Shown piece by piece: positions 8,095-25,839 of a DNA stretch of 34,616 nt. Position 1 is the stretch's first letter, and each line of letters starts with the position of its first letter. The DNA comes from an uncultured Bacilli bacterium (GTDB lineage Bacteria > Bacillota_I > Bacilli_A > RF39 > UBA660): NCBI GenBank assembly GCA_947626445.1, contig CANQSC010000003.1, forward strand, positions 1 through 34,616. Reading direction: 5' to 3'. Position numbers and translations under genes: made by a program. A model generated the notes under the pieces. The model had not been told where the DNA came from and ran no database searches. It saw nothing but the letters and a program-made list of their open reading frames with translations.

Positions 8095-9155
8095 TAACTC
8101 CCACTGATAATTAATTTAATTACTTCTATAAATCTTTTTTTCATATTATTAGGAACATTTTTAATTTCTTTAAAAAAGTTAACAATGGAGATTGGTTTTA
8201 TTTCTCTAAATTGCATAACATTTTTAATACCTAAATGTTCACATATTAAAGCTAATGTTTCAACAAATTTAACTTTTTCTTCTTCTGTCATTTCCTCTAA
8301 ATATTTTTTTAAGTTTTTTTCTAAGTTAAGACTTTTTTTAGAAAGTTTGCCTTCTAGGAATTTGCCCCCAAAACAACACCAACTATCACCATAATGTTGT
8401 AATAAGCCTAGATTATGAGATTTTACTACTTCATATTTATCATGACCTAAAATCATGCCAAAAATACTTTGTTCAGGTACATATATTTTTAATTTAGGAA
8501 GCATTTCTTGCCATTCTCTTGCTTTTAATACATCATCTAAAAAGCCTGGTCCATCATAGTTATAAACATTAATTATTCTTTTTTTGATATTAGTACTCGC
8601 ATGCATGTAAGCATACATAGCTAAGTTACCACCTTTAGAATGACCCCCAACATATATATTACGATCTAAAATATTAATTGTTTCATTTAAATAATTTTTA
8701 GCTTTGTTTTGTGAAATGGTTGGATATTTATAGATTAATTCAAAATCTTCTTCCCAACCAATAATATTACTATCAGTTCCTTCAAAAGCTACATAACAAA
8801 GGTTAGATGGAAATCTTAACGTTAAAGCTCCAAATTGCGTTTCTTTATTTATTTCTTCTAAATAATAATAAACTTTAGCTTCATTAAATCTTTGACAATC
8901 TTTTAAAGCTTTAATTAAATTATAAGTACTAGGAAACAAATAATCTTCTTTTTTAAAATCTTTTTCCGAATATTTTTTTAAATAGATTTCACATATTTCT
9001 TTTATGGTTTTAAAACCTTTTTTATGATTTGGAACAATATTAGTTAATTTAGCATAAGTTAGTAGAGTTATAATTAAACTATCTACTTCATTAAAGGCAA
9101 GTTCTTTAAAAGAGGAATTACCATAATACTTTAAATAATCATATATATCTTTCAT
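8094..9155 (-). CDS. DUF2974 (Mbeg1-like) alpha/beta hydrolase
   Basis: FNEVDSL, QFGA, VAFEGTD, GWEED, GGHSKGGNLA and DGPGF; start ATG 9155 after GGAG. Confidence 0.85.
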   Translation of the reverse strand: MKDIYDYLKYYGNSSFKELAFNEVDSLIITLLTYAKLTNIVPNHKKGFKTIKEICEIYLKKYSEKDFKKEDYLFPSTYNLIKALKDCQRFNEAKVYYYLEEINKETQFGALTLRFPSNLCYVAFEGTDSNIIGWEEDFELIYKYPTISQNKAKNYLNETINILDRNIYVGGHSKGGNLAMYAYMHASTNIKKRIINVYNYDGPGFLDDVLKAREWQEMLPKLKIYVPEQSIFGMILGHDKYEVVKSHNLGLLQHYGDSWCCFGGKFLEGKLSKKSLNLEKNLKKYLEEMTEEEKVKFVETLALICEHLGIKNVMQFREIKPISIVNFFKEIKNVPNNMKKRFIEVIKLIISGS

Positions 9156-9222
9156 ATTGACCTCCATTGTGTTTTTTATTTCTTTTTGTTATAATAACAC
9201 ATATGAAGGTAGGATGAAAAGA

Positions 9223-10533
9223 ATGAATAGAAGAATGAAAGAAAAATATTTAAAAATTTTTATACCTTTACTTGTTGGTTTAATCTTTATTTTATTAATT
9301 TGGGTTGGTTATAAATTAATTTTTGGCAAAAAACTTTCATTCTTAGAAACAATTGATAAATCAGTATATGCTGATATTAATTATGAGGCAATTTATGGAA
9401 TTCATTTAAATTTTAAAGGTTCTTTTGTTCTACCAGATAATTATCATGATATGAAATTAGTGTTAGCAAATGGTAAAGATGAGATTGAAATTCCGATTGA
9501 AGTTAAGGAAAAAGGTGGAAAGAGGGAATTTGTAACTAGTAATTTTATTAATAAAGGTATTAATTTAGAGTATCTACCGGTTGGAACTTATTATTTATTA
9601 ATTAAAGCAAGTACTAATGAAAATAATAAAGAAGTTGATAAATATTTTTCAGTAACTAATAAAACTGATTATGATAATTTAGAATATTATACTTTAACAA
9701 AGAATGGTAAGAATAATAAAATTGATATTGAATGGAATACTTATGAAGAATGCCCAACTTTAAGATTTACGGTTAAGGAAACTAATTTACCAAGTGATGT
9801 TTATGATATTACGATTGACCCTGGACATGGGGGAGTTGATACGGGGGCAATTGGATATTTAAATGGCAAGGAATATCACGAATCAAATTTAAATTTAACA
9901 GTTAGTTTGGCTCTAAAAAAAATCTTAGAAGAGCGTGGATATAAAGTCGCTATTACCAGAAGTACTGATGAAAACATTGAAATTTATGAAAAAGGCGGAA
10001 GTGCTGTTTTAGCTAATGAAACAAAATCAAAATTCAACTTTGCTCTTCATCATAACTCTTTTGATTACCAAGCTGAAGAATTAAATGGTTTAGAAATTTA
10101 TGTAGCAAGTGATATTGAATTTGATTTTGCTAATTTATTAATTGAAAATATTATTAAAGAAACAGGTACACAGATATCACCTAAAGAAATTTATCAAACG
10201 GTTCCGGGCATTTATCAAAGATATTTTTCTGAAGATGATATAGCTGAAGATGAAGTTCAACCAAGTAATAAAACAACATCAATGATATACTATTATAATA
10301 TTCGGGAATTAGGTGGAATAAGTACTCAATCAACAAATGATGGAAGATATAAAGATATTAATGGTTATCCGGCTAATCCTTACTATAAAGCTAATGTTAC
10401 AACAGAACCTTATCTATTAGAACTTGGCTATGTCAATAATGAAGAAAACTTAAAATTAATTATTGGCAATGAAGAAAAATATGCTTTAGGAATTGCTAAT
10501 GCTATAGAAAAATACTTAGAAACAGATTACTAA
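9223..10533 (+). CDS. Membrane-anchored N-acetylmuramoyl-L-alanine amidase (Amidase_3) with N-terminal extension
   Basis: N-terminal TM segment; IDPGHGGVDTGA, ESNLNL, ALHHNS and LLELGY. Start is 9214 or 9223. Confidence 0.85.
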   Translation: MNRRMKEKYLKIFIPLLVGLIFILLIWVGYKLIFGKKLSFLETIDKSVYADINYEAIYGIHLNFKGSFVLPDNYHDMKLVLANGKDEIEIPIEVKEKGGKREFVTSNFINKGINLEYLPVGTYYLLIKASTNENNKEVDKYFSVTNKTDYDNLEYYTLTKNGKNNKIDIEWNTYEECPTLRFTVKETNLPSDVYDITIDPGHGGVDTGAIGYLNGKEYHESNLNLTVSLALKKILEERGYKVAITRSTDENIEIYEKGGSAVLANETKSKFNFALHHNSFDYQAEELNGLEIYVASDIEFDFANLLIENIIKETGTQISPKEIYQTVPGIYQRYFSEDDIAEDEVQPSNKTTSMIYYYNIRELGGISTQSTNDGRYKDINGYPANPYYKANVTTEPYLLELGYVNNEENLKLIIGNEEKYALGIANAIEKYLETDY

Positions 10534-10546
10534 GTATTTTTTTAAC

Positions 10547-11143
10547 TTAATTATATATGTATTTAACTTCTAAATTAATGTTCTTTCCTAATGTTTTTAA
10601 CCTTTCTTGTAAATCATTTAACTTATTCATTACATCAAAATAAAATTCTTGAAAATTATTTATTTGATTTTGAAAAATATCAACAATTATTAACAAAAAT
10701 AAACTATTATTCATAACATATGTATCTTCATAAGTATGAGGATAGTGAACATAATAATTATTTGGATAATTTTCATAATATTTTGTTACTCTTTGATAAG
10801 TATTTTTTATAAAATTGATATCAATACTTTTAAGTTCATAGGCTTTTTTTAAATTTAAAAGTTCTTCTTCACTTAAACGTTCTAAAAATATTTCATTTTT
10901 TAAATAAAATATTTTCCATATAGAATTTACCTCAAATTGTTTTATAAATTCATTTGAAGGTATTATTGGATAATTAATCTTGCTTAAAAATTCATTTTCA
11001 ATCTCACTTAAATTTAAAATTTTATCTAAATAAATTTCTATTGATTTTTTATAAAATTGTACTAATTCATTATATAATTCATTTTTTTGATTATTTTCTA
11101 TAAGTCCAACTTTATTTAATTTTTCAATATTATTTTTATCCAT
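10547..11143 (-). CDS. Hypothetical cytoplasmic protein, candidate immunity partner of the upstream protease-type effector
   Basis: Start MDKNN after GGAGG abuts the stop codon of 11145..13946. The function is inferred from position only. Confidence 0.55.
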   Translation of the reverse strand: MDKNNIEKLNKVGLIENNQKNELYNELVQFYKKSIEIYLDKILNLSEIENEFLSKINYPIIPSNEFIKQFEVNSIWKIFYLKNEIFLERLSEEELLNLKKAYELKSIDINFIKNTYQRVTKYYENYPNNYYVHYPHTYEDTYVMNNSLFLLIIVDIFQNQINNFQEFYFDVMNKLNDLQERLKTLGKNINLEVKYIYN

Positions 11144-11144
11144 A

Positions 11145-13946
11145 CTAGTTACCTCCATTAATAGTTATGGCATTTATACCAATATTAGTATTTTTTAATT
11201 CATCTAAATCTAGTGAACATATATGTCCCCATGATTCAACTAAAATATGGTTTTCATCTTGTATACCAATTACACTTACTGTATGTCCTTCACCACAAAG
11301 TACAGTTTTATTTAGAGCTGGAATATAAAATTTTACTTTATCAGGAGTTGATTCATTATTACCATTTTTTAAATTATTTAGGGTAGGATTAAGTGTTAAT
11401 AATACACTTCCTTTTTTTAAACCATCAGCTATTTTATTAATAACTGTTTGATTAAATTCTGCGTCAGGAATATTATTATTTACTTGCCATGGGGCGACAG
11501 GAAAATTATTATATATTCCTTTATTAGTAGTATTAATATTTAATCCTTTACTTTTTAAATAATCTTCAATTGTTTGAACATTATTTCCTTCAAAATAAGA
11601 AGTTCCCAATTTTATTTTATATTTAGGAGTATAAACATCTTTGCCATCAACATTTTTAACCATGTTATTTTTATTCATCCAGCAATAAAAATCAGTTAAT
11701 AATAAATCATCATTTGGTAATGTTAAGCCTGTTTGATTTTTTCTTGTTAATGGAAAACCAAATGTTTGTTTAAAAAGGTCAGGATTGTTTTGAAAATAAA
11801 TCATGATAGTATTTATGGTAGCCGCATAATCACAAATACCTCCTGTAATTGAACCATTCATATCTGTAGCTAATTTAATTTTATCTTGTTGTGACATATT
11901 AGGAAAATATGATTTAATTATGTCTAATACCAAATTAGCACGCTCTGGGACTTTCATATCAGCTTCTACAATAGATTGATTTGCCCCATTTCGACCGGCT
12001 GGAAATTGTTCAAAAAAGCTCATATATCCTTTAAGAATAGACGAATTAATTATATCATCAATATTTTCAATAGAAATATTTGCTTCCGTTTTACTACATT
12101 TTTCAATTAAATCTTTTAAATCAAGGTCAGAATTTTTATTTATTTGTTCAATAACTTGATTTAATTGCTCATTATTGATATTTATTTTTTGATTGTTTAT
12201 TACTAATGATAAACCGCCAAGAGCTCCACTATAAGCATTCAAATTACCGGCTACAATTGCTCCCATTAAAAATGATTTAATTGCTTCATCTGTTAATTCA
12301 TCTAAATTTACGGGTTTATTTAAGAGTACAGCATCTATCCCAGCCATTAAATAACTTTGCAAAAATTCTTCGTTTCCTTCTTGGAGCATTCTGACGATAA
12401 AGCTTGTACTTGGATTATCTGCTAATCCTAATACACCACCCATTTTCTCAGTTAATACTTCTGATCCTGCTGATAATAAGCCGTATAATATTGATGTCAT
12501 TGTTGTATGTCCATTTACTAAGGCTTCATGTTTAGAGTTTCCATAGGCAGATGCTCCCATCAAAAGTTGTCCTACTTTAGGCGCTAGTTCTGGAGCTACT
12601 AATGATGCTAGAAAACTTGCCGTTACACTTGGTAACATATTTCCAGTAGACATTCCTACTTGATACACATTGTCTAATATTTTAGTTTGTTTTTGTAAAT
12701 ATTGTAAATAATACGCTATCTTATATTCACTTACTGATAAATTTTCATCATTTATTACGGCATTTTCTAAACCTTTAAAAAACAAATTTATTCCATCACT
12801 TAATCCATCAGTTCCAACATTTAAGGTATTACATATATTCTCTTGTATTTCTCCTTCATCATCTAATGATAATTCTTTTATTTCTTTTTGAGCTAAATTA
12901 TAACCAATTCTTTGATTTAGTTCATCTTGTTTTTTATCTATATATTTATCAGCTGATGCTCTTCCTTCATTTTCAAAAAGATAAGAATAAATTTGAATTT
13001 CTTCTTGAGTCATTACTTTATAATTTTCATACATTTTAGAAAAATCTTGTTGATATACTACAACTTGTCTATTTATTACATCACTTATATCTAATCCTTC
13101 TTTGTTAGCTAGACTTTTAGCATACTCACAAAATAATAAAGGATTATAATTTTCTTGCAATTGATATGCTAAATCTGGTACATCATATATTCTTAGATAT
13201 TGTTCTTGATATTCATTATATTTTTCTTCTAATTTTTCATCACTTAAACTGCCATTTAATAACCATTTAATATATTCTTGACTATTGGTTATATTTTCTT
13301 CTTCCTTGGCTATTTTTAATTTTTGAAGTTCTTGTTTTAAGGCATATTGAGCTGATGATAACATTAAACTGTCGTTTTTTATCTTTTGCATATTTTCTTT
13401 ATATTCATCTTCTGTTTTATCACTATTTGTTAATTTTTTAAAAATTTCATTATAGGTATCTGTATAGGTTCTAATTTTTTCTTGCCACTCTTTATCATTA
13501 TAAAAAGCTTCTACTATATTAGCATCAGTGTACATTTGAGAATAATTTCCTAATAATAAATTTTCATATTCTTGAGGTGTCATTGGTTTATCTCCATTTG
13601 ACATTATCTCGCCATTTTCATACCATATTTTTTCATTTTTTATTGAAAAAGCATCATCATATTGTTTTTGTAATGTTTCATATTCTTTATCCATCTGTTT
13701 TTTTAATTTTGTGATATTTTCAAAATTATCATTATTAGTCTTTATTAATCCATCTATATCTTGTAAATTATCATTATTATTACTATTATCTTCTAAAGAA
13801 AAATTAACAATTTCTACTTCACTAGAATTATAATTTGCGTAATTATTTAAATTTTGATTACTAATATTATCAGAAACATTTGTAACTTCCTCATTGTTAT
13901 TATTAGTATAATCTATATTTATATTTTTTACATCTTTTCTAATCAT
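11145..13946 (-). CDS. Putative T7SS effector: shared leader, helical and hydrophobic middle region, C-terminal papain-like cysteine protease
   Basis: GGICDYAA (Cys), GEGHTVSVIG (His) and VESWG; no Sec signal; located in the T7SS locus. Confidence 0.65.
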   Translation of the reverse strand: MIRKDVKNINIDYTNNNNEEVTNVSDNISNQNLNNYANYNSSEVEIVNFSLEDNSNNNDNLQDIDGLIKTNNDNFENITKLKKQMDKEYETLQKQYDDAFSIKNEKIWYENGEIMSNGDKPMTPQEYENLLLGNYSQMYTDANIVEAFYNDKEWQEKIRTYTDTYNEIFKKLTNSDKTEDEYKENMQKIKNDSLMLSSAQYALKQELQKLKIAKEEENITNSQEYIKWLLNGSLSDEKLEEKYNEYQEQYLRIYDVPDLAYQLQENYNPLLFCEYAKSLANKEGLDISDVINRQVVVYQQDFSKMYENYKVMTQEEIQIYSYLFENEGRASADKYIDKKQDELNQRIGYNLAQKEIKELSLDDEGEIQENICNTLNVGTDGLSDGINLFFKGLENAVINDENLSVSEYKIAYYLQYLQKQTKILDNVYQVGMSTGNMLPSVTASFLASLVAPELAPKVGQLLMGASAYGNSKHEALVNGHTTMTSILYGLLSAGSEVLTEKMGGVLGLADNPSTSFIVRMLQEGNEEFLQSYLMAGIDAVLLNKPVNLDELTDEAIKSFLMGAIVAGNLNAYSGALGGLSLVINNQKININNEQLNQVIEQINKNSDLDLKDLIEKCSKTEANISIENIDDIINSSILKGYMSFFEQFPAGRNGANQSIVEADMKVPERANLVLDIIKSYFPNMSQQDKIKLATDMNGSITGGICDYAATINTIMIYFQNNPDLFKQTFGFPLTRKNQTGLTLPNDDLLLTDFYCWMNKNNMVKNVDGKDVYTPKYKIKLGTSYFEGNNVQTIEDYLKSKGLNINTTNKGIYNNFPVAPWQVNNNIPDAEFNQTVINKIADGLKKGSVLLTLNPTLNNLKNGNNESTPDKVKFYIPALNKTVLCGEGHTVSVIGIQDENHILVESWGHICSLDLDELKNTNIGINAITINGGN

Positions 13947-13954
13947 AAATCCTC

Positions 13955-16393
13955 CTAAGTAAAATATAGAAAATCTCCAACACTTCGTTCGCCAGTTTCA
14001 TCAGTTGGATTATTTATTAATTCTCCATCAAATACTAAGGAAACACTTCCACCTTGATCCATGCTTTTTGCATAAGTACAACCTTTATTATACAAATATT
14101 CTCTTGCTCCAACATTTGTTGTAGAACCTGTTAAAATATAATATTCTCCAGGCTTCGTCATACCAATAACAGTACTATTATAAGCTGTATCATTTTCACT
14201 AGAGGGTTGAGAAATATAATCTTTTTCACCATTCCAAATTAATCTTGAATCTAAACTGGCAAAAGTATAAACCACTCCTTTATCTATCAAATCAGTAGCT
14301 GTTGTTCCAGGACTAGGTGTAAATAATCTACCATCTTTATCTAGACAAATTTCCATGGCTTGGGAAGTACCATCATGCACGATTTTTCCATTTACTATAG
14401 CTATATGATTAGTATTTCTTAAATCTTGCTCGCCATTATCTAAAAAGTTACTACCATTGATCACTAATGTAGCATTTTTTCTTTTAGCTGCACTACTAGG
14501 TTTTTCAAGACCACTAGCATATTTTCCATTAGCTGGCTCTCCTTTTATCTTAGAAGGATCATCAATAACTATATGGGTTAAATAGCAAGGATTGCCATCA
14601 ACTTCGACATCTCTAATTGTAATAAATTCATTTTCATCTATTTTAACTTTAAATGCTTTTTGAATTTCTTCCGCATATTTCACTATAGCATTACCAATAT
14701 TACTATTTTTTAAAATCTTAGATAAATCAATTTTTTTAACCACTTTTCTATTACTCTTAACTGAAGTCGGCTCTGAATTTGAAGAAGAATTGTTTTGAGG
14801 TATTTTTAAAACCTGACCAACATTAATATTATTTGGATCGGTTATATTATTAGCTTTAACTATGTCATCAACACTTAATCCATATTTGGCTGCTATGGCA
14901 CTTAACGTTTGCCCACGTTGAACAGTATAATCCTCAAATGTTGGCTTATTATTAGATTTATTTGTCATAATTAAATTAATAAAATTAAGAATTTTTTCAG
15001 GATTAATATTTATATTTTGTTCTTTTAATTTATTGCTTATTATTTCCTTTAAATTATTAACTACTTTGTTATTTGATTCTTTAAAATCTTGAATTTGTTT
15101 TGCTAAGACGGGAATCATTGATTCCATAGTATTATTTACTTTTTGGCTTACCATTTTTATTTGATTAATCAATTGTTGATAATTAGTTTGAAAATTATTG
15201 AAATTGAATGATTCAATTATATTATTAATATTTTGATAGTTAATGCTTATATTAGATTCTTTTAATTTTTCAGTTATTATTTTTTTTAAATCATAAGCAT
15301 TATTAATATTTTTGTCTTTAATTTCTTGGGCTTGTTTTGCTAAAGTTAGGATAATTGAATCAACTGTATTATTTGCTTTTTGGCTAATATTCTTTATTTG
15401 ATCAACTAATTGTTGAGCTTGATTGACAGGGTTTTCTTCTTCTTTAGTGGTAAGAATTTTATCTACCATTTCTTTTATACTTTTCGAATTAATTTTTATA
15501 TTTTGTTCTTTTAATTTATCATTAATCATTTTTCCTAAATCAATAGCTGTTTGAGAATTTTGATTATTAATATCTTGAATTTGTTTAGTTAGTAATGGAA
15601 TTGCTGATTTTATTGCATCATTTGCTTTTTGGCTTGCTATTTTTATTTGTTCTGCCAATTGTTTTGCTTTAGCTTTTGAATCTGTTTCATTATTTTTGGC
15701 AAGAACTTTATCAACGATAATATTAATACTTTCTGGATCAAAATTGGCATCAATTTCATTTAGCTTATCAATAACTAATTTTTTTAAATCTTCTGCTGTA
15801 CTATTATTTTTATCATTAATATTTTGGATTTGTTTTACTAAAGTTGGAATAATTGAGTCAACCACATCATTTACATTTTGACTAGCCATTTTTAATTGAT
15901 CAGCAATTTGTTTTGATAATTCTTCCTTTTTATCCGTTTTTTCACCTTTAGATGGTATTTTAATAATTTGATCTACTTCAATATAATTTGGATTAGATAT
16001 ATTATTTTCTTTTACTAAATCATCAATAGAAACCCCATACTTTTCGGCAATAATAGTTAAATTATCTCCTTCTTTGACGGTATAAGTTGATGTATCTTCG
16101 GGAAGGTTAGGAATTTTTATTACTTGACCATTTTCAATATAATTTGGATCGGCAATATTATTATAGTCAGCTAATTCTTGATATGTTAAGCCATATTGCT
16201 CAGCAATGGAGGTCAATGTCTCGCCACTTTCGACAACATGCTCGCTATCAAATTCCATTGTTTCTACATTTGAATTTTGATAATCAATTGATACATTAGT
16301 ATCATTATTATTCTTAATACTATCTACATTACCAGATTCTTTTTGTTCATCATAATATATTGATTGCTTACTTACTCCTTTTTTTATTGCCAT
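13955..16393 (-). CDS. LysM x3 protein with four ~80-aa helical repeats and a C-terminal phosphodiester glycosidase (NAGPA-like) domain; putative T7SS substrate
   Basis: LysM motifs HVVESGETLTSIA, YTVKEGDNL and YTVQRGQTLSAIA; VINGSNF, MDQGGS and ERSVGDFLYF. Confidence 0.8.
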   Translation of the reverse strand: MAIKKGVSKQSIYYDEQKESGNVDSIKNNNDTNVSIDYQNSNVETMEFDSEHVVESGETLTSIAEQYGLTYQELADYNNIADPNYIENGQVIKIPNLPEDTSTYTVKEGDNLTIIAEKYGVSIDDLVKENNISNPNYIEVDQIIKIPSKGEKTDKKEELSKQIADQLKMASQNVNDVVDSIIPTLVKQIQNINDKNNSTAEDLKKLVIDKLNEIDANFDPESINIIVDKVLAKNNETDSKAKAKQLAEQIKIASQKANDAIKSAIPLLTKQIQDINNQNSQTAIDLGKMINDKLKEQNIKINSKSIKEMVDKILTTKEEENPVNQAQQLVDQIKNISQKANNTVDSIILTLAKQAQEIKDKNINNAYDLKKIITEKLKESNISINYQNINNIIESFNFNNFQTNYQQLINQIKMVSQKVNNTMESMIPVLAKQIQDFKESNNKVVNNLKEIISNKLKEQNININPEKILNFINLIMTNKSNNKPTFEDYTVQRGQTLSAIAAKYGLSVDDIVKANNITDPNNINVGQVLKIPQNNSSSNSEPTSVKSNRKVVKKIDLSKILKNSNIGNAIVKYAEEIQKAFKVKIDENEFITIRDVEVDGNPCYLTHIVIDDPSKIKGEPANGKYASGLEKPSSAAKRKNATLVINGSNFLDNGEQDLRNTNHIAIVNGKIVHDGTSQAMEICLDKDGRLFTPSPGTTATDLIDKGVVYTFASLDSRLIWNGEKDYISQPSSENDTAYNSTVIGMTKPGEYYILTGSTTNVGAREYLYNKGCTYAKSMDQGGSVSLVFDGELINNPTDETGERSVGDFLYFT

Positions 16394-16527
16394 GCGTACT
16401 TTCCTTTCGTTTTAATTAACATTATTTTCATTTTTCTTTATTAGTTTTAAAACATACTTATTTTTTTTCTTTTTTTCTATTAATTATTGTTAGATTAATC
16501 TCTTATATGCAAATATGCTAATATAAA

Positions 16528-16767
16528 TCATTTATTACCTTTTAAATAATCAATTAATTTCATTATTATTTTAAACAATTCTTGATATTCTTTTTCTTCA
16601 ACTGGACAGATATTTTCATTTATAATTTTACCTACAAAAACACTCTCAAAGTCATTAGGAGATATAATATAAAATACATATTCAAAATTATTATATTTAA
16701 TATTAACTAACGGATATATTTCTTTTGTTTCATCATTAAGACTAACAATTATTTTTTCATTGTCCAT
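16528..16767 (-). CDS. Small hypothetical protein (DUF1292-like)
   Basis: 79 aa, overlaps the stop of the upstream gene, acidic beta/alpha pattern ending PVEEKEYQEL. Confidence 0.55.
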   Translation of the reverse strand: MDNEKIIVSLNDETKEIYPLVNIKYNNFEYVFYIISPNDFESVFVGKIINENICPVEEKEYQELFKIIMKLIDYLKGNK

Positions 16768-17339
16768 ACTAATTTATCCCCTTCTAACATTTTTTTTGCT
16801 TCTTTCTCAGCAATTAAATCTTTAGTTTTATAATGCTTTTCTCCATCCCAATCTTTAATATATTTTAGAATATCTTCTTTACTAATTGATTCATTATTTT
16901 TTAATAATTTATCCTCATATAAATTATAGAATACACTGCTTTCTTTAAATAAACATAGATTAGTCCATTCTCCTCCAACAATTACATTACCTGTTAAAAT
17001 ATCTTGAGCTAAATATAGATCATTAGTTAAATAAACAGTTCCATCAGTTAATTGCTTTATATATAATTTATCTAATCCTATCTCTTTATCATCAATAATA
17101 ATCTGTTCATTATCATATATTTTAGCAAATTCTTCATCTATTTCTTCATCAGGTATTTCTTCCATAATATTTTGGCATAATATTTCATAACTTTCAGTAT
17201 AGCATAAATCTTCTTCAATCGTATTAGCTTTAACATGATTTATTAATAAACTAGATATTAAGATACTATTAGTAAGCATTAAAGTAGATCCTTTAATTAT
17301 TTTATTTATTTTCATTTTTTTAGTATTTATTATTTTCAT
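16749..17339 (-). CDS. Secreted acidic hypothetical protein (possible extracytoplasmic immunity or accessory protein)
   Basis: Basic N-terminus, hydrophobic stretch, VKA cleavage-like site, RBS GAGGAG. Confidence 0.6.
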   Translation of the reverse strand: MKIINTKKMKINKIIKGSTLMLTNSILISSLLINHVKANTIEEDLCYTESYEILCQNIMEEIPDEEIDEEFAKIYDNEQIIIDDKEIGLDKLYIKQLTDGTVYLTNDLYLAQDILTGNVIVGGEWTNLCLFKESSVFYNLYEDKLLKNNESISKEDILKYIKDWDGEKHYKTKDLIAEKEAKKMLEGDKLVWTMKK

Positions 17340-17359
17340 ATATTTTTCTCCTCTTATTA

Positions 17360-19006
17360 TTAATTACCATTTAATATATACTTCATATAATCATATAAAG
17401 TTTGAAATTCTCCATAATTAATTTTAATTTGAGTTAAGCGTTCAGGATATATGTAATAGTTATCTATACATCTAGCAAACCATTCATTAGGTGCATCTTT
17501 TAACGCTATTGACAGTAATTCACTATTATTTTGATTAAATATTTGTTTGTAAACTACTTCTTTCCAATCTTCTCTTTCAGATATTCTACCTTTTGCTGCA
17601 TCATAAGCATGTCCCAATTCATGAATCAATATTTTTTGAGCTGTAAGGCGCTTCTTTTCATCATTAGATACTATAGTATTACCATTTATTACTACTTTTT
17701 TACCATTTAATGTTATACCAGAATATCCTCCATTTTTAAGATATAGAATTGGAATTTCTTTATCTAAGCTAGAATTTTTTATAGTTTGAATAAAATCATA
17801 ATCAAGATTTTTAGTATTATTAATATAATCAGTTACATACTGTTGAGCTTTTTTAATATATTCTTCTTTATCTTCACCTTCCAAAGGTACAACTTTAACC
17901 TTTTTTTTATCATTTTCATCTACTTCAAATTTTGCTAATGGAATTTTAAAGTTAAAATCGCTATTTGGATAAGAAATATATAGCACATCGCCTACATACA
18001 TTACTTCACCATGATTAGGTATGGTAATTGTTTGAGGCTGAGCAATGATACTACAATTGAGATCATATTCAGTATTAGAGCTACTTTTAAAGAAGGCAAA
18101 TCGTAAAATGTCTAAATATTTTTCATAATCTAAATTATTATTTTTTAAAACATCTTTTATTATTTGCATAATATCACGGGCTTGATTAAGATTTTGTTGA
18201 TGCGTTTCTTTAATTTTGCTAGCAATTACAGGAATTAAATTCGTTATTTTTTCATTGGCATTTTTAAAAAAATTTTTTATTTCATCTGCTAATTGTTCAG
18301 GAGTATCATTGCCCTTTGACAACATTTGAATTATTTTATTTATATCTGTTGGATCAAGACTCATATTTGACTTGGAGAAGGCTTCTTTTATAATATTTTT
18401 GATGACTTCACTTGTTTGATTACTATTTTGCGCAACTTCTTGGGCTTTAGATCCTAACATAGTTGCGGCTTTATTTGATGCTTCAGTTATTTTTTTACAT
18501 AATTTTTTTATTTCATCTGCTACTTTTTTTTCTTCAGAATTACTATTTTGATTTTCTTCTTTAGGAGGAATTTTTATTACTTGACCGATTTCAATATAAT
18601 TAGGATCGGCAATATTATTATAATCAGCTAATTCTTGATAGGTAAAACCATAAGCATTAGCTATTTTTGTTAAATTATCTCCCCCTTTAACGGTATAAGA
18701 TGATGTGTCTTCGGGAAGATCAGGAATTTTTATTACTTGACCAGTTTCAATGTAATTGGGATCGGGTATATCATTATAATCAGCTAAATCTTGATACGTT
18801 AAACCATATTTTTCAGCAATGGAGGTCAATGTTTCGCCACCTTCGACAACATGCTCACTATCAAAGTCCATTGTTTCTACATTTGAATCTTGATAGTCAA
18901 TTGATATATCAGAATCATTATTATTCTGAATACTATCTACATTACCAGATTTTTTTTGCTCATCATAATATATTGATTGACTACTTACTCCTTTTCTTAT
19001 TGCCAT
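17360..19006 (-). CDS. LysM x2 protein with two helical repeats and a C-terminal HExxH zinc metallopeptidase (lethal-factor/PPEP-like); putative T7SS substrate
   Basis: LysM motifs; ILIHELGHAYD followed by NEWFAR; RBS GGAGG. Confidence 0.78.
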   Translation of the reverse strand: MAIRKGVSSQSIYYDEQKKSGNVDSIQNNNDSDISIDYQDSNVETMDFDSEHVVEGGETLTSIAEKYGLTYQDLADYNDIPDPNYIETGQVIKIPDLPEDTSSYTVKGGDNLTKIANAYGFTYQELADYNNIADPNYIEIGQVIKIPPKEENQNSNSEEKKVADEIKKLCKKITEASNKAATMLGSKAQEVAQNSNQTSEVIKNIIKEAFSKSNMSLDPTDINKIIQMLSKGNDTPEQLADEIKNFFKNANEKITNLIPVIASKIKETHQQNLNQARDIMQIIKDVLKNNNLDYEKYLDILRFAFFKSSSNTEYDLNCSIIAQPQTITIPNHGEVMYVGDVLYISYPNSDFNFKIPLAKFEVDENDKKKVKVVPLEGEDKEEYIKKAQQYVTDYINNTKNLDYDFIQTIKNSSLDKEIPILYLKNGGYSGITLNGKKVVINGNTIVSNDEKKRLTAQKILIHELGHAYDAAKGRISEREDWKEVVYKQIFNQNNSELLSIALKDAPNEWFARCIDNYYIYPERLTQIKINYGEFQTLYDYMKYILNGN

Positions 19007-19016
19007 ATTGAGCCTC

Positions 19017-19262
19017 CTAATTTATTTTTTGATTAATACTTGGTAAAACAATATTATTAATTTTTTTATAATTGTTTTCATTAATATTTAAATATTTTTT
19101 TAATGTATCTTTTTCAATAATGGTATTATTTAATTTAACAGTATCATTCATTTCATTTATTAGTTTTTTATGAATAATGCTTAATTCTCCTAAATTATGA
19201 TTTAATTTAATAACTAATTGTTGTAAAATTTGATACTTTTTTTTAGTTGCTTCATCTATCAT
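19017..19262 (-). CDS. Small helical protein, WXG100-like accessory candidate
   Basis: 81 aa of amphipathic helices, translationally coupled within the T7SS cluster. Confidence 0.55.
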   Translation of the reverse strand: MIDEATKKKYQILQQLVIKLNHNLGELSIIHKKLINEMNDTVKLNNTIIEKDTLKKYLNINENNYKKINNIVLPSINQKIN

Positions 19263-19552
19263 AAATCACCTATATTTTCAAGTATACTTTCTGTTTCTTT
19301 AACTTGTTTTTGATATTTACTTATATTTTTTTCTAAGACAATAACATTATTTTGAAAATTACGATTTATAACCTGTAAATTTTTAATTAAATTTATTTCA
19401 AAATTATTTATTTTATTTACATTTGTAGATTTATAAATGCTATTTATCTGACTATTTTTATTTAATGATTCAATATTTAGTAAACATTCTTTTTGATAAA
19501 ATTTCATTTTATTTAAATTTAACTTAAGTAATGCTTCATTTAATATTGCCAT
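19259..19552 (-). CDS. WXG100-like small helical protein (central YxS)
   Basis: 97 aa, helix-turn-helix pattern with central IYKS, T7SS context. Confidence 0.55.
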   Translation of the reverse strand: MAILNEALLKLNLNKMKFYQKECLLNIESLNKNSQINSIYKSTNVNKINNFEINLIKNLQVINRNFQNNVIVLEKNISKYQKQVKETESILENIGDL

Positions 19553-19567
19553 TTTATCTTATCCTCT

Positions 19568-20128
19568 CTATAAGTAATTTATATATTCTAATTCTTTAAT
19601 AATTCGATTTTCATATTTAGATACAAGACTATTTATTTCAATTTCTTTTCTTTCAATATTTTTTATGGTATTTTTAACGTTATAATATATCTTTTTTATA
19701 CTTTGTTGATTATTTACTAAATCAGTTTTAATATTTAAAATTATTTCTTTTTCGGTTGGGCAAAAACTTAAATCCATATTGTTAATTAAATTTATAGAAT
19801 CAGCAATTTGATTTAAATATTTTTCAAAGATATTAAATAAAGAATTTTTGTTATCTTTTAAATAATAAATTTGTTTAGCAATTGGTTCATATTTAAAAAC
19901 TATACTTTTAAATATTTCATTTAATTCTTTTAAATCTAAAATAACTTTGTTTGATTCATTTTTTTGATAATTAATTTGATCTAAATATAATTTTGAATGT
20001 TCGTCTTGCCAGCAATCCATAGCTTGATTTAAGGCATTATAAAAATTCAAATAATTTAATTCATAAGAATCAATTATTTGTTTAATTTGTAAACTTTGTT
20101 TTTTTAATAGTTCTACGTCAATTCTCAT
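19568..20128 (-). CDS. WXG100-like protein (central WQD) with helical extension
   Basis: MRIDVELL start and CWQDEHS at the hairpin position. Confidence 0.6.
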   Translation of the reverse strand: MRIDVELLKKQSLQIKQIIDSYELNYLNFYNALNQAMDCWQDEHSKLYLDQINYQKNESNKVILDLKELNEIFKSIVFKYEPIAKQIYYLKDNKNSLFNIFEKYLNQIADSINLINNMDLSFCPTEKEIILNIKTDLVNNQQSIKKIYYNVKNTIKNIERKEIEINSLVSKYENRIIKELEYINYL

Positions 20129-20202: not shown

Positions 20203-20847
20203 CTAATCATTTCCTGCAAATGCTTGAGCAATTTTACCTTCAGTATTTTTATAATTGGTAACAGTAGTATTTATTGCACTTTTTAATTGAGAACTACAAC
20301 CAGTAAAAGTTGTATTAATATTGTTCTTAATCGTATTTAATGATGCTAGTAAATTAGCTGCTGATTCGCCACCAATAAAACCACAAGTTTGAACAGCAGT
20401 TACAGCACGACTTAAGGCACCTTGAGCTGCACCATTAATAATTTGTAAACTATTAGTAGTTGTATTAGCAGCAGATAAGTCAATACCTCTTACCCCATTA
20501 ATGTTTTCTTTAATTACAGAAGTATTAAGTTCTTTACGTGTTGAGGTATAAGATGGTGCTGAAAAAGTAGCGCCAGTTTGATTAGCCCAATTTTGGCCAG
20601 CTGTTTTCATAGAATTAACAACACTTGTAAAAATTTTTTCAGCATCTTTTGTTAATTTATCCATTGCTGGTTTAACTGAGTCATTAAAATATTTTTGTGC
20701 ATTGCTGCATGCCCATAAATTTCCCATTTTGTCAACAAATTGTGATTGAAACTTTCCACATAAAATATCCATTGTGTCATTAGCTGCTGTAATAAAATTA
20801 TTCATTGATGTTCTAACAATTGCAGGATCAAAACCCATTAAAGCCAT
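20203..20847 (-). CDS. Tandem (double) WXG100-like protein, probable major T7SS substrate
   Basis: Start MALMGFDP after AAAGGAG. First half has WAC, second half has FIG; C-terminal YKNTE matches YxxxD/E. Confidence 0.65.
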   Translation of the reverse strand: MALMGFDPAIVRTSMNNFITAANDTMDILCGKFQSQFVDKMGNLWACSNAQKYFNDSVKPAMDKLTKDAEKIFTSVVNSMKTAGQNWANQTGATFSAPSYTSTRKELNTSVIKENINGVRGIDLSAANTTTNSLQIINGAAQGALSRAVTAVQTCGFIGGESAANLLASLNTIKNNINTTFTGCSSQLKSAINTTVTNYKNTEGKIAQAFAGND

Positions 20848-20952: not shown

Positions 20953-21213
20953 TTATTTAGTAAATATAAATAATTCCGTACCATTTCTTATATCCGTATA
21001 AATAACTACTTCATTATTGTGATAAACTCGACAATTATCCTTATTTAATAAAATGTATTCTTCATTATTTGCAAATATAGTCCCCGTTAAATCTATTATT
21101 GATTTAATTAACATTTTTTTAATTTTCCAAATTACTTCATTTACTGGTAAAAATAAATCAAAAGTTTCATTTAAAGTTGGAACAGTTAATTTTATTAAAA
21201 CTTTATTTTCCAA
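20953..21213 (-). CDS. esaB: EsaB/YukD-like ubiquitin-fold T7SS protein
   Basis: 86 aa with FDLFLP...IRNGTELFI, directly downstream of essC. Confidence 0.75.
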   Translation of the reverse strand: MENKVLIKLTVPTLNETFDLFLPVNEVIWKIKKMLIKSIIDLTGTIFANNEEYILLNKDNCRVYHNNEVVIYTDIRNGTELFIFTK

Positions 21214-21215
21214 AA

Positions 21216-24200
21216 TTATTCCTCCTCTTTAGATATAAAATCAATTAATTTACATAAAATTGGGGTACTCTCTGATATAATATATCCCATTTGATTATTA
21301 TAATCTTTAGTCATATCTCTAGTAATATTTGATAAATGAAATAAAGTTTGATCCGCAATTCCTTTACCTACCCATAAGCCGTCATTTAAACTAAAAGTGC
21401 TAGTAAACCATTGCTCATAAGCATAATTTTTAACTTTGTTAGCACCATCTATAATAAGAGGATAAATTTTTTCATAAGTTTTTAATAAATTAAAGAAATT
21501 GGTTAATTTATCAGAATCAACTTTACTTATAAATTTATCAAGATTATAGATAATAATTATACCTTTTAAAGTATTTTTTTGATTAATTAAATTATTCATA
21601 TATTCTATAATACTATCCATTAATTGATCAAAATTTTCTGTGTAATAATTAGGATAAGTAATTTTATTTAAACTTAAGTCTTTACTAGAATCAATAATAA
21701 TTAATTGAGTATTTTTAAGATGACTTATTTCTTCTATTAAACTTAACGTAAAATTTTTAAGATTACCAATTTTATTAGATGTTATAATATTACCTAAATT
21801 AGTAGAAAAATCTAAAGAAAGAATTTCTAAATCATTTTTACTTATAGCAATTGGTAAAGATGTGACATCACTAAGATGTTCTTCAATATCTTTCAAACGA
21901 ATTATATTTGGTAAAGTCGGAATTTTACGAGCTTTGTTTTTATTTAAATTTTGTTGTTCTATGACAAAATCGTTAATTTCTTTAGTCATTTTAGAATCTA
22001 ATGGGAAAGGTGTGGCTGTTTGAAACTCATATACTTCATCAGTTCTAAATAAGCCTCGGCCAAAAATATTTTTAGGAATAATTTTAGTATGAACATCAAA
22101 TATAGAACGATAATCATTATCATCTTTTAATTTAAAGGCTATAATATTTGGACAATTTTGAGATATTTTAGTATGAACAGAATTAACTTGGTTAGCTGTT
22201 ATAATAAAGATTATTCCATAATGTTCTGAATCTCTTATTAATTCTGGTAATTCATCATATAAATCTTGATTAGCTTCATAAATACTATCATAATTATTCA
22301 TAATAATAGCTTTAATTGGTAACTTCTTTTCGTTTTTTTGATTATATAATTCAAAATCACCATTATAGTCTGATAAAATCTTTTTACGTTTTTTGATATC
22401 TTCTTTAATTAACTTCCATAAATTATTATATTTTTCGTCTTCAAGGGCTAAGACAAGACCACCAACATGAGGTAATTTAGAATATTTGACTAGTGATTCA
22501 GAACCATAATCAATTATATAAAAATTAATATCATCAGCTTGATAATTTTTAGCAGTTTCATAAATAATTGTATTTAATAAATTTTCATTTTCGCTACCAT
22601 CGTTTCCATAAATAATAGTATTGCCATTTTTTAAATAAGAATAGGTAACTAAATTTTGTTGTTGATATTGTGGAGCATCATACTCACCTATTATAATTTT
22701 TATTTCATCGGTTTTTTGATAATGATATTTATTTTCTAGAGAAGACACTAAAACATCAGATGGCAAACTTTCTAACCATAATCTTTTAGCTTTCATTCCT
22801 AAATTTTGCGATACCGAAATGATATTTTTTAAGATGGCTGTAATTTGTTCACCTTCAGCTTGAACATGATTTTGACTTGAAGCTTGAATGTTTTTAATAA
22901 AAGTGCCACTTTCATCGATAAAATTGATACTTCTATCTACTTGTTTAATAAGTTTTTCACTAGGATAATAATTAGCTCCAGCATAGGCAGATTGGCCTAA
23001 AACAAAATATTCGTCAAAACCAACTTGTAAATAAAATCTTCCGGTTTGCTTTATGGCCGCTGCTTCAGGTCGTTTTAGCATTTCTCTACTATCTTGTTCA
23101 TCACTTACTTTTAAACAAACCCGAAAACGAGTATTAGACCAAATTTGATCATTGACAACACCACTTGGTTTTTGAGTTGCTAAAATAAGATGAACCCCTA
23201 AACTACGACCAATACGCGCGACACTAATTAAATCATCCATAAAGTCAGGTTGATTAACTTTTAATTCAGCAAATTCATCGCATATGATAAATAAATGAGG
23301 AATTGGTGTATCTAATCGTCCTTCATTATAATATCTTTGATATTTATATATATCTATAGTACTTTCACTTAATTTATCTCTTGCTTCATTAAAAATAGTT
23401 TGTCTTCTTTTAATTTCACTATTAATACTTACTAATGCTCGGTCAATTTCTGACTTATCTAAATTGGTTATTGTTCCCGCTAAATGAGGTAAAACTAAAT
23501 TAGTAGTTTTATTTTCAAAGGCATAGGCTAAGCCCCCACCTTTATAGTCTATTAAAATAAATGCTACTTCTTCAGGACTATAATTAATTGCCAAAGATAA
23601 AATATAAGTAATAATAAATTCTGATTTACCTGAACCAGTAGTACCAGCTATTAAACCATGAGGTCCATGAAATTTTTCATGTAAATCCAAATATAATAAA
23701 TCACCATGTTCATCTACACCAACTTCAGCTTTTAAACTTAATGTTGCATCATTTCTCTGCCATCTATTTAAAATATTTAATTGCTCTACTTTACCTACTT
23801 TTTCCATCTCTAAAAAATTAATACTATTTGGTAATTGACTTAAATTATTTTCAAATTCAATAGGAATATTAGCTAAAGCTTTAACGATGTTACTCATGTT
23901 AAGGTTATAATGAATTTCATCAGTAAAACTACTTTTTTCTTGATTTTCATAAGCATTAATTAAAATCTCTGAGGTGCGGTCACCAATGGTAATAAAATTA
24001 TTACATTTACTTGGTAATTTACTCAATTTATTTTCAATAAACACAATACTAAAACCAAGATTTACATCTAATTCAGTTAAATCTTTAACAAAATCAAAAC
24101 GTTTAAATTCGTCTATTTCATCCATGATGATAAAATAATAAGGCTTAGGAGTATAATTTTTATTACTACTTTTAGCGATCCTTGAATTAAGTTCACTTTC

Positions 24201-25757
24201 TAGGTAATCAGCAATGGTTTTAGCACTTTCTTTATTAGTTGAAAAAAATCTTAATGTTTTTTCGTCATTAAAGTTATGATTTAAATATTTTAAGTATTCC
24301 CATAAATATGCGTTTTGCTCATTAGTAAATAAAACAATTTTGACATCTTCATATGTGTAAAAAGTTAAGATTTGTAAAAGTAAATTATTAACAAAGGCAA
24401 TAGTTTTTCCGGGAATACCCATAATTGCTGTTAGTTTGTGTTCATAAAATGAATAACCTAACGGAACATTTGGAATAAATTTATACTTTTCAATTAGATT
24501 TTCAGCTTGTTCTCTTAATTCATTTTCATCAACTTTAAAATCTTCTTCATTATATTCTACTTTAACATCTAGGGGTTGATTGCCAATTCCTACTCTAAGA
24601 GTTAGAAAATCACTTTGGTCAAGTCTTTTATCCCAAAAGTTCATGCTTTTATTGGCAATTGTGGAAAGACAATCTTCTATGGTTAGTAAATTTTCTAAAA
24701 TAATTACTTTTTGAAGTTCCTTTTCATCCGCGAAGGTTTTTTCTTTTTTGCTTAAATATTTATTGTATTTTTCAATGATTTCTTTATGGTGTTTCTTTTG
24801 TTGACGGCGATTATAAAATTGGGTTAATAATGGCCAAACTAACATGGATATTAACATAGCACTACTGGTAATTAATTGAGGCCAAGATTCGGCCATGGAT
24901 GTAGTTTTTCTAGTAATGCTAGTTATGGTACTTACTAGCATTGCTGCTCCCGTTACGCCCATTGTAAGCATTGGGCCAATTACTAAAATTAAAGGAAGTT
25001 CATTTTTGCTTTCTTCAGGTGGGGGACTTATTTTAATTGTTTTCGATTCAATTGTTCTTCTAAGTCTTGGCGCTTTAGAATAATAATCAACGGGTTGATA
25101 TAAATTGTTATCTTTTAATTCAATGTTTTTAGGAGGTTCTTCATTAACATAAACATGTGGTTTGATATTTGTTTTACCATTAATAATATTTAAATCTTTT
25201 TCAGAAGTTATAATTAAAAAGAAAGATTTTAAAAAGATTAACCTTATACCATAGATGTCTATTTCATCACCAATTTTTAAATAGGCACTCTTTTTTGAAT
25301 AAACTTTTTGATTAATGTATAAATTATTTTGACCTTTATTAATTATTTGAAGGCCTTGATTACCATTATTTAATTCAAATAAAATATTTTTAAAATATGG
25401 GCATTTATTTTTGATATTAACATTATTTTCGTTGCCAATTAAAAGTTCTAAGTTTGAAGGATATTCATAAGTTAATACCTTTTGAGTTAAAGGACTAGTT
25501 ACATAAATTAAAAATAATTTTTGATCTCTTTTAATAACATAGTATTCATTAACATTTAAAGCAACTTTTTTTACTGAGATTTGATTGCTATAAATATCCA
25601 TATCTTCTAAAGCATATAAAACCCATTTGCCATTTTGAGCTTCTATATTAATTAAACTATTTTTGTTTTTTTCATAATCAAAAGAATAACTACCAGAAAC
25701 GCTAGTAGGTAAACGAAAATTAATAAGTCGATCATTTAAATATAAAGTTATTATCAC
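21216..25757 (-). CDS. essC: Type VII secretion FtsK/SpoIIIE ATPase EssC
   Basis: N-terminal FHA-like region, two TMs, GPHGLIAGTTGSGKSE, IDYKGG, CDEFAEL and ARIGRSLGVHLILATQKP. Start is GTG 25757 or 25766. Confidence 0.93.
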   Translation of the reverse strand: MIITLYLNDRLINFRLPTSVSGSYSFDYEKNKNSLINIEAQNGKWVLYALEDMDIYSNQISVKKVALNVNEYYVIKRDQKLFLIYVTSPLTQKVLTYEYPSNLELLIGNENNVNIKNKCPYFKNILFELNNGNQGLQIINKGQNNLYINQKVYSKKSAYLKIGDEIDIYGIRLIFLKSFFLIITSEKDLNIINGKTNIKPHVYVNEEPPKNIELKDNNLYQPVDYYSKAPRLRRTIESKTIKISPPPEESKNELPLILVIGPMLTMGVTGAAMLVSTITSITRKTTSMAESWPQLITSSAMLISMLVWPLLTQFYNRRQQKKHHKEIIEKYNKYLSKKEKTFADEKELQKVIILENLLTIEDCLSTIANKSMNFWDKRLDQSDFLTLRVGIGNQPLDVKVEYNEEDFKVDENELREQAENLIEKYKFIPNVPLGYSFYEHKLTAIMGIPGKTIAFVNNLLLQILTFYTYEDVKIVLFTNEQNAYLWEYLKYLNHNFNDEKTLRFFSTNKESAKTIADYLESELNSRIAKSSNKNYTPKPYYFIIMDEIDEFKRFDFVKDLTELDVNLGFSIVFIENKLSKLPSKCNNFITIGDRTSEILINAYENQEKSSFTDEIHYNLNMSNIVKALANIPIEFENNLSQLPNSINFLEMEKVGKVEQLNILNRWQRNDATLSLKAEVGVDEHGDLLYLDLHEKFHGPHGLIAGTTGSGKSEFIITYILSLAINYSPEEVAFILIDYKGGGLAYAFENKTTNLVLPHLAGTITNLDKSEIDRALVSINSEIKRRQTIFNEARDKLSESTIDIYKYQRYYNEGRLDTPIPHLFIICDEFAELKVNQPDFMDDLISVARIGRSLGVHLILATQKPSGVVNDQIWSNTRFRVCLKVSDEQDSREMLKRPEAAAIKQTGRFYLQVGFDEYFVLGQSAYAGANYYPSEKLIKQVDRSINFIDESGTFIKNIQASSQNHVQAEGEQITAILKNIISVSQNLGMKAKRLWLESLPSDVLVSSLENKYHYQKTDEIKIIIGEYDAPQYQQQNLVTYSYLKNGNTIIYGNDGSENENLLNTIIYETAKNYQADDINFYIIDYGSESLVKYSKLPHVGGLVLALEDEKYNNLWKLIKEDIKKRKKILSDYNGDFELYNQKNEKKLPIKAIIMNNYDSIYEANQDLYDELPELIRDSEHYGIIFIITANQVNSVHTKISQNCPNIIAFKLKDDNDYRSIFDVHTKIIPKNIFGRGLFRTDEVYEFQTATPFPLDSKMTKEINDFVIEQQNLNKNKARKIPTLPNIIRLKDIEEHLSDVTSLPIAISKNDLEILSLDFSTNLGNIITSNKIGNLKNFTLSLIEEISHLKNTQLIIIDSSKDLSLNKITYPNYYTENFDQLMDSIIEYMNNLINQKNTLKGIIIIYNLDKFISKVDSDKLTNFFNLLKTYEKIYPLIIDGANKVKNYAYEQWFTSTFSLNDGLWVGKGIADQTLFHLSNITRDMTKDYNNQMGYIISESTPILCKLIDFISKEEE

Positions 25758-25839
25758 ATCAATCACCTTAATTATTCTCTATTAAATATTTTAACAAATA
25801 AAAAAGATAAAATAAAGAAGAATTATGTTGGTTTGATGG

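Follow-up and report, generated by a model that had tools for sequence, protein, structure and literature searches.

A degenerate N-terminal leader on type VII secretion-linked cargo of uncultured Bacilli, a candidate export tag

A 34,616-nucleotide stretch of DNA from an uncultured Bacilli bacterium of the RF39 order (assembly GCA_947626445.1, contig CANQSC010000003.1, positions 1 to 34,616; hereafter the window) contains a gene cluster encoding EssC, the FtsK-type ATPase of type VII secretion systems (T7SS), and three large proteins that we call cargo A, B, and C. We found that A, B, and C start with a leader of about 50 residues, which is the sole region common to all three, and that a degenerate form of this leader recurs on the cargo of related T7SS loci. 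The leader is modular, positionally fixed, and conserved at the protein level, and it stands on T7SS-linked cargo that has neither a Sec signal nor an LXG domain. It is real, and it is wider and more degenerate than a preliminary description of this DNA had proposed. Sequence comparisons suggest a role in export, and we think it probable that the leader is a T7SS export tag that binds the machine as a strand, with free helical proteins supplying the conventional signal.

The three reading frames lie on the minus strand and agree exactly with the preliminary description in coordinates, length, and leader sequence: A (548 aa) at 17360..19006, B (812 aa) at 13955..16393, and C (933 aa) at 11145..13946, each with a ribosome-binding site at its start. 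The leader spans residues 1-48 of A (18863..19006), residues 1-48 of B (16250..16393), and residues 1-49 of C (13800..13946). Its core is a hexamer, which reads VETMDF at residues 43-48 of A (18863-18880), VETMEF at residues 43-48 of B (16250-16267), and VEIVNF at residues 44-49 of C (13800-13817). In line with the reported absence of a Sec signal, the highest Kyte-Doolittle mean of any 12-residue stretch within the first 45 residues was 0.18 for A, -0.02 for B, and -0.56 for C, and a hydrophobic core of the Sec or lipoprotein type was also missing from the cargo of the first test set described below (maximum 12-residue mean 1.15). The LysM domains ascribed to A and B are present (two and three, respectively).

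It is correct that the three proteins share a leader, but A and B are paralogous, with 52% identity across residues 1-299, so the leader that they share counts once and only its match to C is informative. When the leaders of A and B were aligned with that of C, shuffling gave p values of 0.0008-0.0014 (global alignment) and 0.016-0.023 (local alignment), and C was the next best match after A and B themselves among 1010 N-termini of the window genome. Searched against 1554 N-termini, a profile built from C-family leaders alone found A (E 2.6e-6) and B (9e-5); its scores on other LysM-type leaders were poor (E 0.4-1.4). The converse profile, of LysM-family leaders, found two C orthologues (1e-4 and 1e-3) and some others weakly, and it missed C itself.

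The proposed consensus, I(R/K)KxV-x4-IxY...(D/N)YxxSxVExxxF, survived in part. Among 11 close leaders, I3, K5, and I12 were invariant and V43, E44, and F48 nearly so, but neither tyrosine was conserved, and we rejected the full consensus that includes them. The valine of the core hexamer is encoded by all four Val codons, which indicates that the core is conserved at the protein level. C had been called otherwise unrelated to A and B; this is true beyond the leader (best blastp E 5e-5, in low-complexity sequence), but the body of C is common to effectors of other T7SS loci. When a strict leader profile was run over 1.84 billion representatives, it gave 13 matches, all at residues 1-57 and all, on inspection, in relatives of the LysM or C families; a word-indexed leader search gave 10 matches. 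The strict form of the leader is therefore confined to one small lineage.

In its degenerate form, the leader is not limited to the three genes and recurs far beyond them across related loci. We searched 401 genomes of the order with a 214-aa protein from the window cluster and fetched loci from all 16 genomes that matched besides that of the window (genomes are labeled G, with G000 for that of the window, and fetched loci L). The large non-housekeeping reading frames of the cluster in these fetched loci open with a box of aliphatic residues, followed by a spacer rich in Asn and Ser and then by a hexamer. The whole leader is about 45 residues long, and the hexamer, near residue 40, has the form hydrophobic-E-x-hydrophobic-D/N/E/S-hydrophobic.

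We scored 19 cargo from 15 distant loci (set 1) with an 8-column matrix trained on the 11 close leaders only. Their median score was 9.2, compared with 2.6 for 72 other proteins of at least 300 aa from the same loci (p 2e-9) and 2.6 for 390 reading frames of the window genome (p 3e-10). Residues 28-50 contained the best site in 18 of the 19 cargo and in 24 of the 72 other proteins, and the score exceeded the 95th background percentile in 11 and 5, respectively. Shuffles within each N-terminus gave a combined p of 1e-11 (with seven of the 19 individually above 0.1), and internal windows scored 3.1 and 1.5. Two low scorers were dropped from both groups: L058:15315, which is at a contig end and probably truncated, and L062:2804, which is 10 kb away.

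The loci of set 2 were chosen by EssC identity only (15 regions from the same group, five from the next tier, and G258). Sixteen cargo candidates came from 13 of these 21 regions, and three proteins consisting of a p186-like domain (see below) with a tail were kept out of both groups. With a 26-leader matrix that had been built before the loci were fetched, the median was 6.7 for cargo versus 3.4 for 93 other proteins (p 8e-6), and 5 of 16 cargo versus 2 of 93 others exceeded the 95th percentile; with the first matrix, the medians were 5.9 and 3.1 (p 0.003). The hexamer pattern, which was written after both sets had been seen, matched 8 of 16 cargo versus 2 of 93 others in set 2, 16 of 19 cargo in set 1, and none of 10 cargo with helical N-termini from other EssC clades. 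The 214-aa protein was also used to scan GTDB and metagenomes, which contributed 2 and 16 further loci, respectively, most of them redundant.

EssC was found in 193 of the 401 genomes, often twice; 33 EssC loci in 32 genomes scored above 1400 bits, and a gap followed. In a midpoint-rooted FastTree tree of 40 EssC rows, the loci with leader cargo formed one clade of 23 (support 99, with a core of 20 at support 100), and the loci whose cargo has helical N-termini fell outside it. Because we assigned the clade labels ourselves and found most leader loci via the 214-aa protein, this link is partly built in; the split also holds in an unselected genus set, in which 24 of 47 genomes have EssC. The leader thus co-occurs with one EssC clade whose cargo lacks the LXG domain. 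The further claim that it is tied to T7SS fared less clearly: we found no N-terminal leader away from a T7SS in the 401 genomes, but the broad leader profile used for this search is insensitive. It matched 21 genomes, of which 14 hold the system and the other seven have weak, internal matches in unrelated genes, and it missed one of its own training sequences (in G221), so it is no proof of absence elsewhere. A possible exception, in G025 outside the clade, is a truncated orphan reading frame whose motif, at residue 66, scores a weak 7.8. In G015, a C orthologue that has the leader sits away from essC.

The proteins behind the leader are diverse, as had been proposed. Residues 63-230 of 29 leader proteins fell into 15 unrelated clusters, and the domains found on leader cargo included CHAP, phage tail lysozyme, LysM, NAGPA, M91, transglutaminase, ADP-ribosyltransferase with HD, and metallophosphoesterase; many leader cargo had no Pfam match. 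In A, the leader is followed by two LysM domains (E 2e-31), a helical region, and a metallopeptidase-like end with an HExxH motif (HELGH at residue 462; Peptidase_M91 at E 1.3e-5, barely past the cut-off). B contains two LysM domains, helical repeats, a further LysM domain, and a phosphodiester glycosidase domain (NAGPA). C consists of the leader, an effector body (about residues 74-620), and an exchangeable C-terminal domain.

Orthologues of C keep the first 600 residues (about 70% identity) and have exchanged ends. Judged by this organization, C is a polymorphic effector with a variable C-terminal domain and an adjacent 203-aa putative immunity family; the window member of that family lies at 10547..11158 on the minus strand, and 15 homologues occur in the fetched loci, mostly adjoining a cargo gene. 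The end of C has no Pfam match, but Cys705, His888, an SWG motif, and the atlas leads (Peptidase_C39_2 and IdeS/Mac-1, at 0.91) suggest that it is likely to be a papain-like cysteine protease. Residues 74-614 of C match residues 333-891 of giant effectors in L027 and L029. These effectors have a helical domain at their N-terminus, so that the leader of C occupies the place of some 330 residues. At the other extreme, a 325-aa protein in L060 (at 14527) has little besides the leader and a C-type end domain. A C orthologue at L017:9007-10075 (G002) is broken by stops, and the adjoining LysM cargo gene is intact.

The window is contig C3 of a low-GC genome of 1.17 Mb that is 82% complete. Following mnmE-mnmG-gidB, the minus-strand gene order is essC, then genes for proteins of 86, 214, 186, 97, and 81 aa, then A, genes for 196- and 79-aa proteins, B, C, and the 203-aa gene. 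EssC (1516 aa, 21216..25766) matches TIGR03928 at 968.6 bits (cut-off 778.4) and Pfam FtsK_SpoIIIE. The 86-aa protein (20953..21213) has 37 homologues in fetched essC loci and matches no Pfam or NCBIfam family; from its position behind essC and its general likeness, we take it to be EsaB/YukD-like. The 214-aa WXG100-like protein (20203..20847) has homologues in 17 of the 401 genomes (E ≤ 1e-5). An iterated profile of it reaches WXG-like proteins of 97-107 aa, ESAT-6 appears only at E 0.12, and there is no Pfam WXG100 match; it is likely to be the EsxA equivalent, with tandem hairpins. The next three genes encode a toxin-free helical protein of LXG-domain size with an invariant W40 (p186, 186 aa, 19568..20128) and two Lap-sized proteins, p97 (97 aa, 19259..19552), which belongs to a conserved family, and p81 (81 aa, 19017..19262), which has 17 homologues in T7SS loci.

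In size and predicted helices, p186, p97, and p81 fit the set formed by an LXG domain and its Lap partners. The AlphaFold2 model of p186 has three long helices (residues 5-39, 43-116, and 124-183; pLDDT 82.5), and its atlas lead is WXG100 at 0.88. The model of a p186 homologue from L154 (residues 1-300) shows two helical halves separated by short strands, with pLDDT below 50 at residues 231-277, where the motif lies. In four fold searches with the p186 and L154 models, WXG100, LapD2, and PPE chains appeared only among unrelated helical bundles (Z 8.5-9.7), and searches of PDB sequences with profiles of p186 and of the 214-aa protein gave nothing significant. When p186 and the helical N-termini of cargo from other clades were compared profile to profile, the score was weak (E 0.005-0.007, probability about 6%), and we therefore do not claim homology. 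Profile matches showed p186 fused to p97 in L072, L142, L144, and L150, which suggests that the two proteins pair.

The L154 homologue is part of a larger protein (L154:7728-9596, in G372), in which a p186-like domain (E 3.9e-6) is followed by a linker with the hexamer YEDIDY at residue 268 and by an M14 zinc carboxypeptidase. Free cargo in L155 and L156 have this hexamer too, at residues 43-45. The motif can thus stand within a linker behind an LXG-sized domain and is not strictly N-terminal. Other p186-like proteins have low-complexity tails of about 200-270 residues and no enzyme domain (L018:551-1792, L020:3362-4558, L050:2028-3209, L155:8354-9631, and L156:8304-9677).

We examined five leader genomes for other T7SS parts (that of the window, 82% complete, and four that are 91-95% complete). 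None had EssB/YukC (PF10140) above the cut-off, although the Bacillus subtilis control was positive, and none had EsaA/YueB (TIGR03929) above the cut-off, with one sub-cut-off match in G104. LXG (PF04740) was found neither in these genomes nor in A, B, C, and sets of 38 and 21 related proteins. DUF4176 (PF13780) was also missing from all five, G000 included, and is present in other leader loci; we rejected it as an obligate partner because of its absence from the five. Leader cargo is present in G185 (94% complete), which has no match to p186 or p81, and p81 has no match in G104 or G360. Taken together, the L154 fusion, the tailed p186 proteins, and these three genomes argue that the receptor of the motif is not the trio of p186, p97, and p81; most likely, the predicted receptor is the EssC of this clade or the 214-aa WXG100-like protein.

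The mechanism that we propose is as follows. The leader, which is likely to replace a covalently attached LXG-type domain, would be disordered, and its hexamer of alternating acidic and hydrophobic residues would form a short β-strand and bind a conserved element of the machine, most likely EssC or the 214-aa protein. Together, p186, p97, and p81 would build a rod like that of LXG and Lap proteins, which would supply, for all cargo together, the usual signal that engages the ATPase. Once exported, the cargo would act on the walls of cells or on competitors, and downstream genes would confer immunity. More tentatively, and as an idea that may well prove wrong, the cluster could be a minimal T7SS (EssC, EsaB, and free helical carriers, without EssB and EsaA) that exports any folded enzyme by means of a portable, disordered, 45-residue N-terminal tag, sufficient on a foreign protein, that arose when an LXG rod was uncoupled from its toxins.

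Several observations weigh against the leader being such a tag. Only 11 of 19 cargo in set 1 and 5 of 16 in set 2 pass the 95th background percentile, and the motif is missing from about half of set 2. Cargo in L142 (two), L144 (two), L149, and L151 lack a clear motif even though their EssC proteins are 47-50% identical, the clear failure in L149 having a helical N-terminus. The set 1 cargo were chosen after their N-termini had been seen, and seven of the 16 genomes belong to one genus and are kin rather than independent. The hexamer is unspecific, since the pattern occurs at residues 25-66 in 26 of 390 long reading frames of the window genome. It is internal, at residue 268, in the L154 fusion, and eight copies lie in the tail of the L018 p186 protein (p 0.008); two other p186 tails were not enriched (p 0.50 and 0.26). 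Finally, the LXG-likeness of the p186 model is not established by the fold searches, and leader cargo without p186 and p81 in G185 argues that the trio is not essential.

The alternative that survives best, which we nevertheless regard as unlikely, is that gene fission left the leader behind. It would then be the disordered linker that followed an LXG-like domain, with export determined by another part of the cargo or by an adaptor, as for the Streptococcus suis MSE effectors, and with the hexamer kept for stability or chaperone binding. The natural fusion in L154 and the p186 proteins with long tails fit this idea, fragments lacking YeeF provide a precedent (PMC12558993), and, in orthologues with bodies 70% identical to that of C, the spacer reaches only 32-46% identity to the one in C. 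It does not readily explain why the leader precedes 15 unrelated body clusters at a position fixed near residue 40, or how cargo that are nearly leader and enzyme alone, with little else to recognize, would be exported; moreover, DUF4176, the known chaperone of such linkers, was not found in the five leader genomes.

A role after or apart from targeting, such as attachment to a secreted carrier polymer or to the surface, a processing site, or entry into target cells, is rather improbable. Repeated copies of the motif (several in the tail of one carrier, two in L140) point to multivalent binding, and LysM and wall-enzyme cargo could remain on the surface of the producer. The leader is, however, the sole feature common to the cargo, and as they have no other visible export signal, something must route them. 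We consider it very improbable that the common start is a functionless product of duplication or recombination between neighboring 5′ ends: A and B are paralogues and only a small lineage has the strict leader, but both test sets, in which the same motif occurs at the same position across distant genera without other similarity, largely refute this idea, and the codons of the core vary synonymously. [quoted passage not shown] Kinase-like reading frames adjoin cargo in L064, L065, L067, and L071, and intact phosphothreonine sites have been noted in T7SSd/e (PMC11217815), but T occurs in only 10 of 26 aligned leaders (C has Ile), EssC residues 1-200 show by eye no GR or SxxH phosphate-binding residues, and the window cluster has no kinase-like gene.

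Other genes of the window and of related loci are described here for completeness. The 196-aa protein (16749..17339, minus strand) has an N-terminal hydrophobic stretch (19-residue Kyte-Doolittle mean 1.39 at residue 14) and three homologues, all behind a leader cargo; it is a putative immunity protein or partner of A. The 79-aa protein (16528..16767, minus strand), which is weakly DUF1292-like, has three homologues paired with the 196-aa family, and a protein in a similar place in L069 matches DUF1292 below the cut-off (E 2e-4). The cargo region is flanked by genes for an Mbeg1-like hydrolase and an N-acetylmuramoyl-L-alanine amidase (8094-10533), likewise in G011 and G002; the amidase may serve export through the wall. 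At 30094-31505, a surface-protein-like gene is split between two frames into pieces of 292 and 108 aa, and its family is multicopy in relatives. The kinase-like reading frames, identified by inspection, lie between the cargo or immunity genes and the 214-aa gene (L064:4418-5158, L065:4459-5214, L067:4363-5094, and L071:15017-15712).

The order contains several EssC clades with different carrier sets. In one of them (L034-L036 and L039), the fetched stretch has an EsaB-sized gene alone, with neither carriers nor cargo. A gene for a protein of roughly 630 aa, presumably a HerA/VirB4-like ATPase, adjoins T7SS carriers in some other clades (L024:2352-4253, L032:3945-5786, and L048:13152-15086), and tandem arrays of three or more WXG-like paralogues of 220-250 aa stand behind essC at L033:667-2731 and L150:8962-11227. 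An EssC match with internal stops, possibly frameshifted, lies beside intact leader cargo at G285:C5:22136-26242.

Characterized T7SS cargo of Bacillota are addressed by folded helical bundles (WXG100, or LXG with Laps). A short linear tag on unrelated folds would, if confirmed, be a different mode of recognition, the first short address for T7SS that resembles a signal peptide, and a possible tool for secreting chosen proteins. With the leader, effectors can also be catalogued across this large uncultured order, in which almost half of the genomes searched have EssC. Neither a short N-terminal tag for T7SS nor a T7SS in RF39 was reported in the literature that we searched, subscription journals being poorly covered.

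The window system resembles the canonical T7SSb and the T7SSc-j in that its EssC passes TIGR03928 and EsaB-sized and WXG100-like genes adjoin (PMC11217815). It differs from T7SSb in the absence of EssB and EsaA above the cut-off in the five genomes, and from T7SSc-j, whose extra core genes were not seen by Pfam in the window cluster and whose substrates are listed with helical LXG-like or Rhs domains (PMC11217815). The DUF4176/Ltc system has a short site in a disordered region of T7SS toxins, as is predicted for the leader, and in many related loci the cargo are preceded by small genes for DUF4176; the DUF4176 site, however, is an amphipathic helix in a middle domain of the toxin (PMC12478183), whereas the leader motif alternates like a strand. 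We rejected LDXD as the family, because LDXD is a WXG-like helical bundle (PMC3482391).

The carrier genes recall TelA-LapA3-LapA4, in which a helical protein of roughly 190 aa and two small helical partners stand upstream of cargo and immunity genes, and the two helical halves split by strands in the L154 model fit the description of TelA (bioRxiv 10.1101/2023.07.21.550046). Here, in contrast, the LXG-sized protein is a separate, toxin-free gene in most loci and has no Pfam LXG match, and there are several cargo per carrier set. By analogy, the closest precedent for the leader cargo is the MSE-ExT effectors of the S. suis T7SSb, LXG-less cargo that are exported with a separate small helical protein or adaptor, which has a YxxxD motif and binds both the cargo and EssC D1 (PMC12558993). 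The MSE region is a 310-aa domain, mostly on NADase toxins, that binds MapC2, whereas the window cargo, compared by description only, have a degenerate 45-residue leader on unrelated folds. Both are nonetheless polymorphic effectors without YeeF/LXG that have a conserved N-terminal region and occur in fused and unfused forms (PMC12558993).

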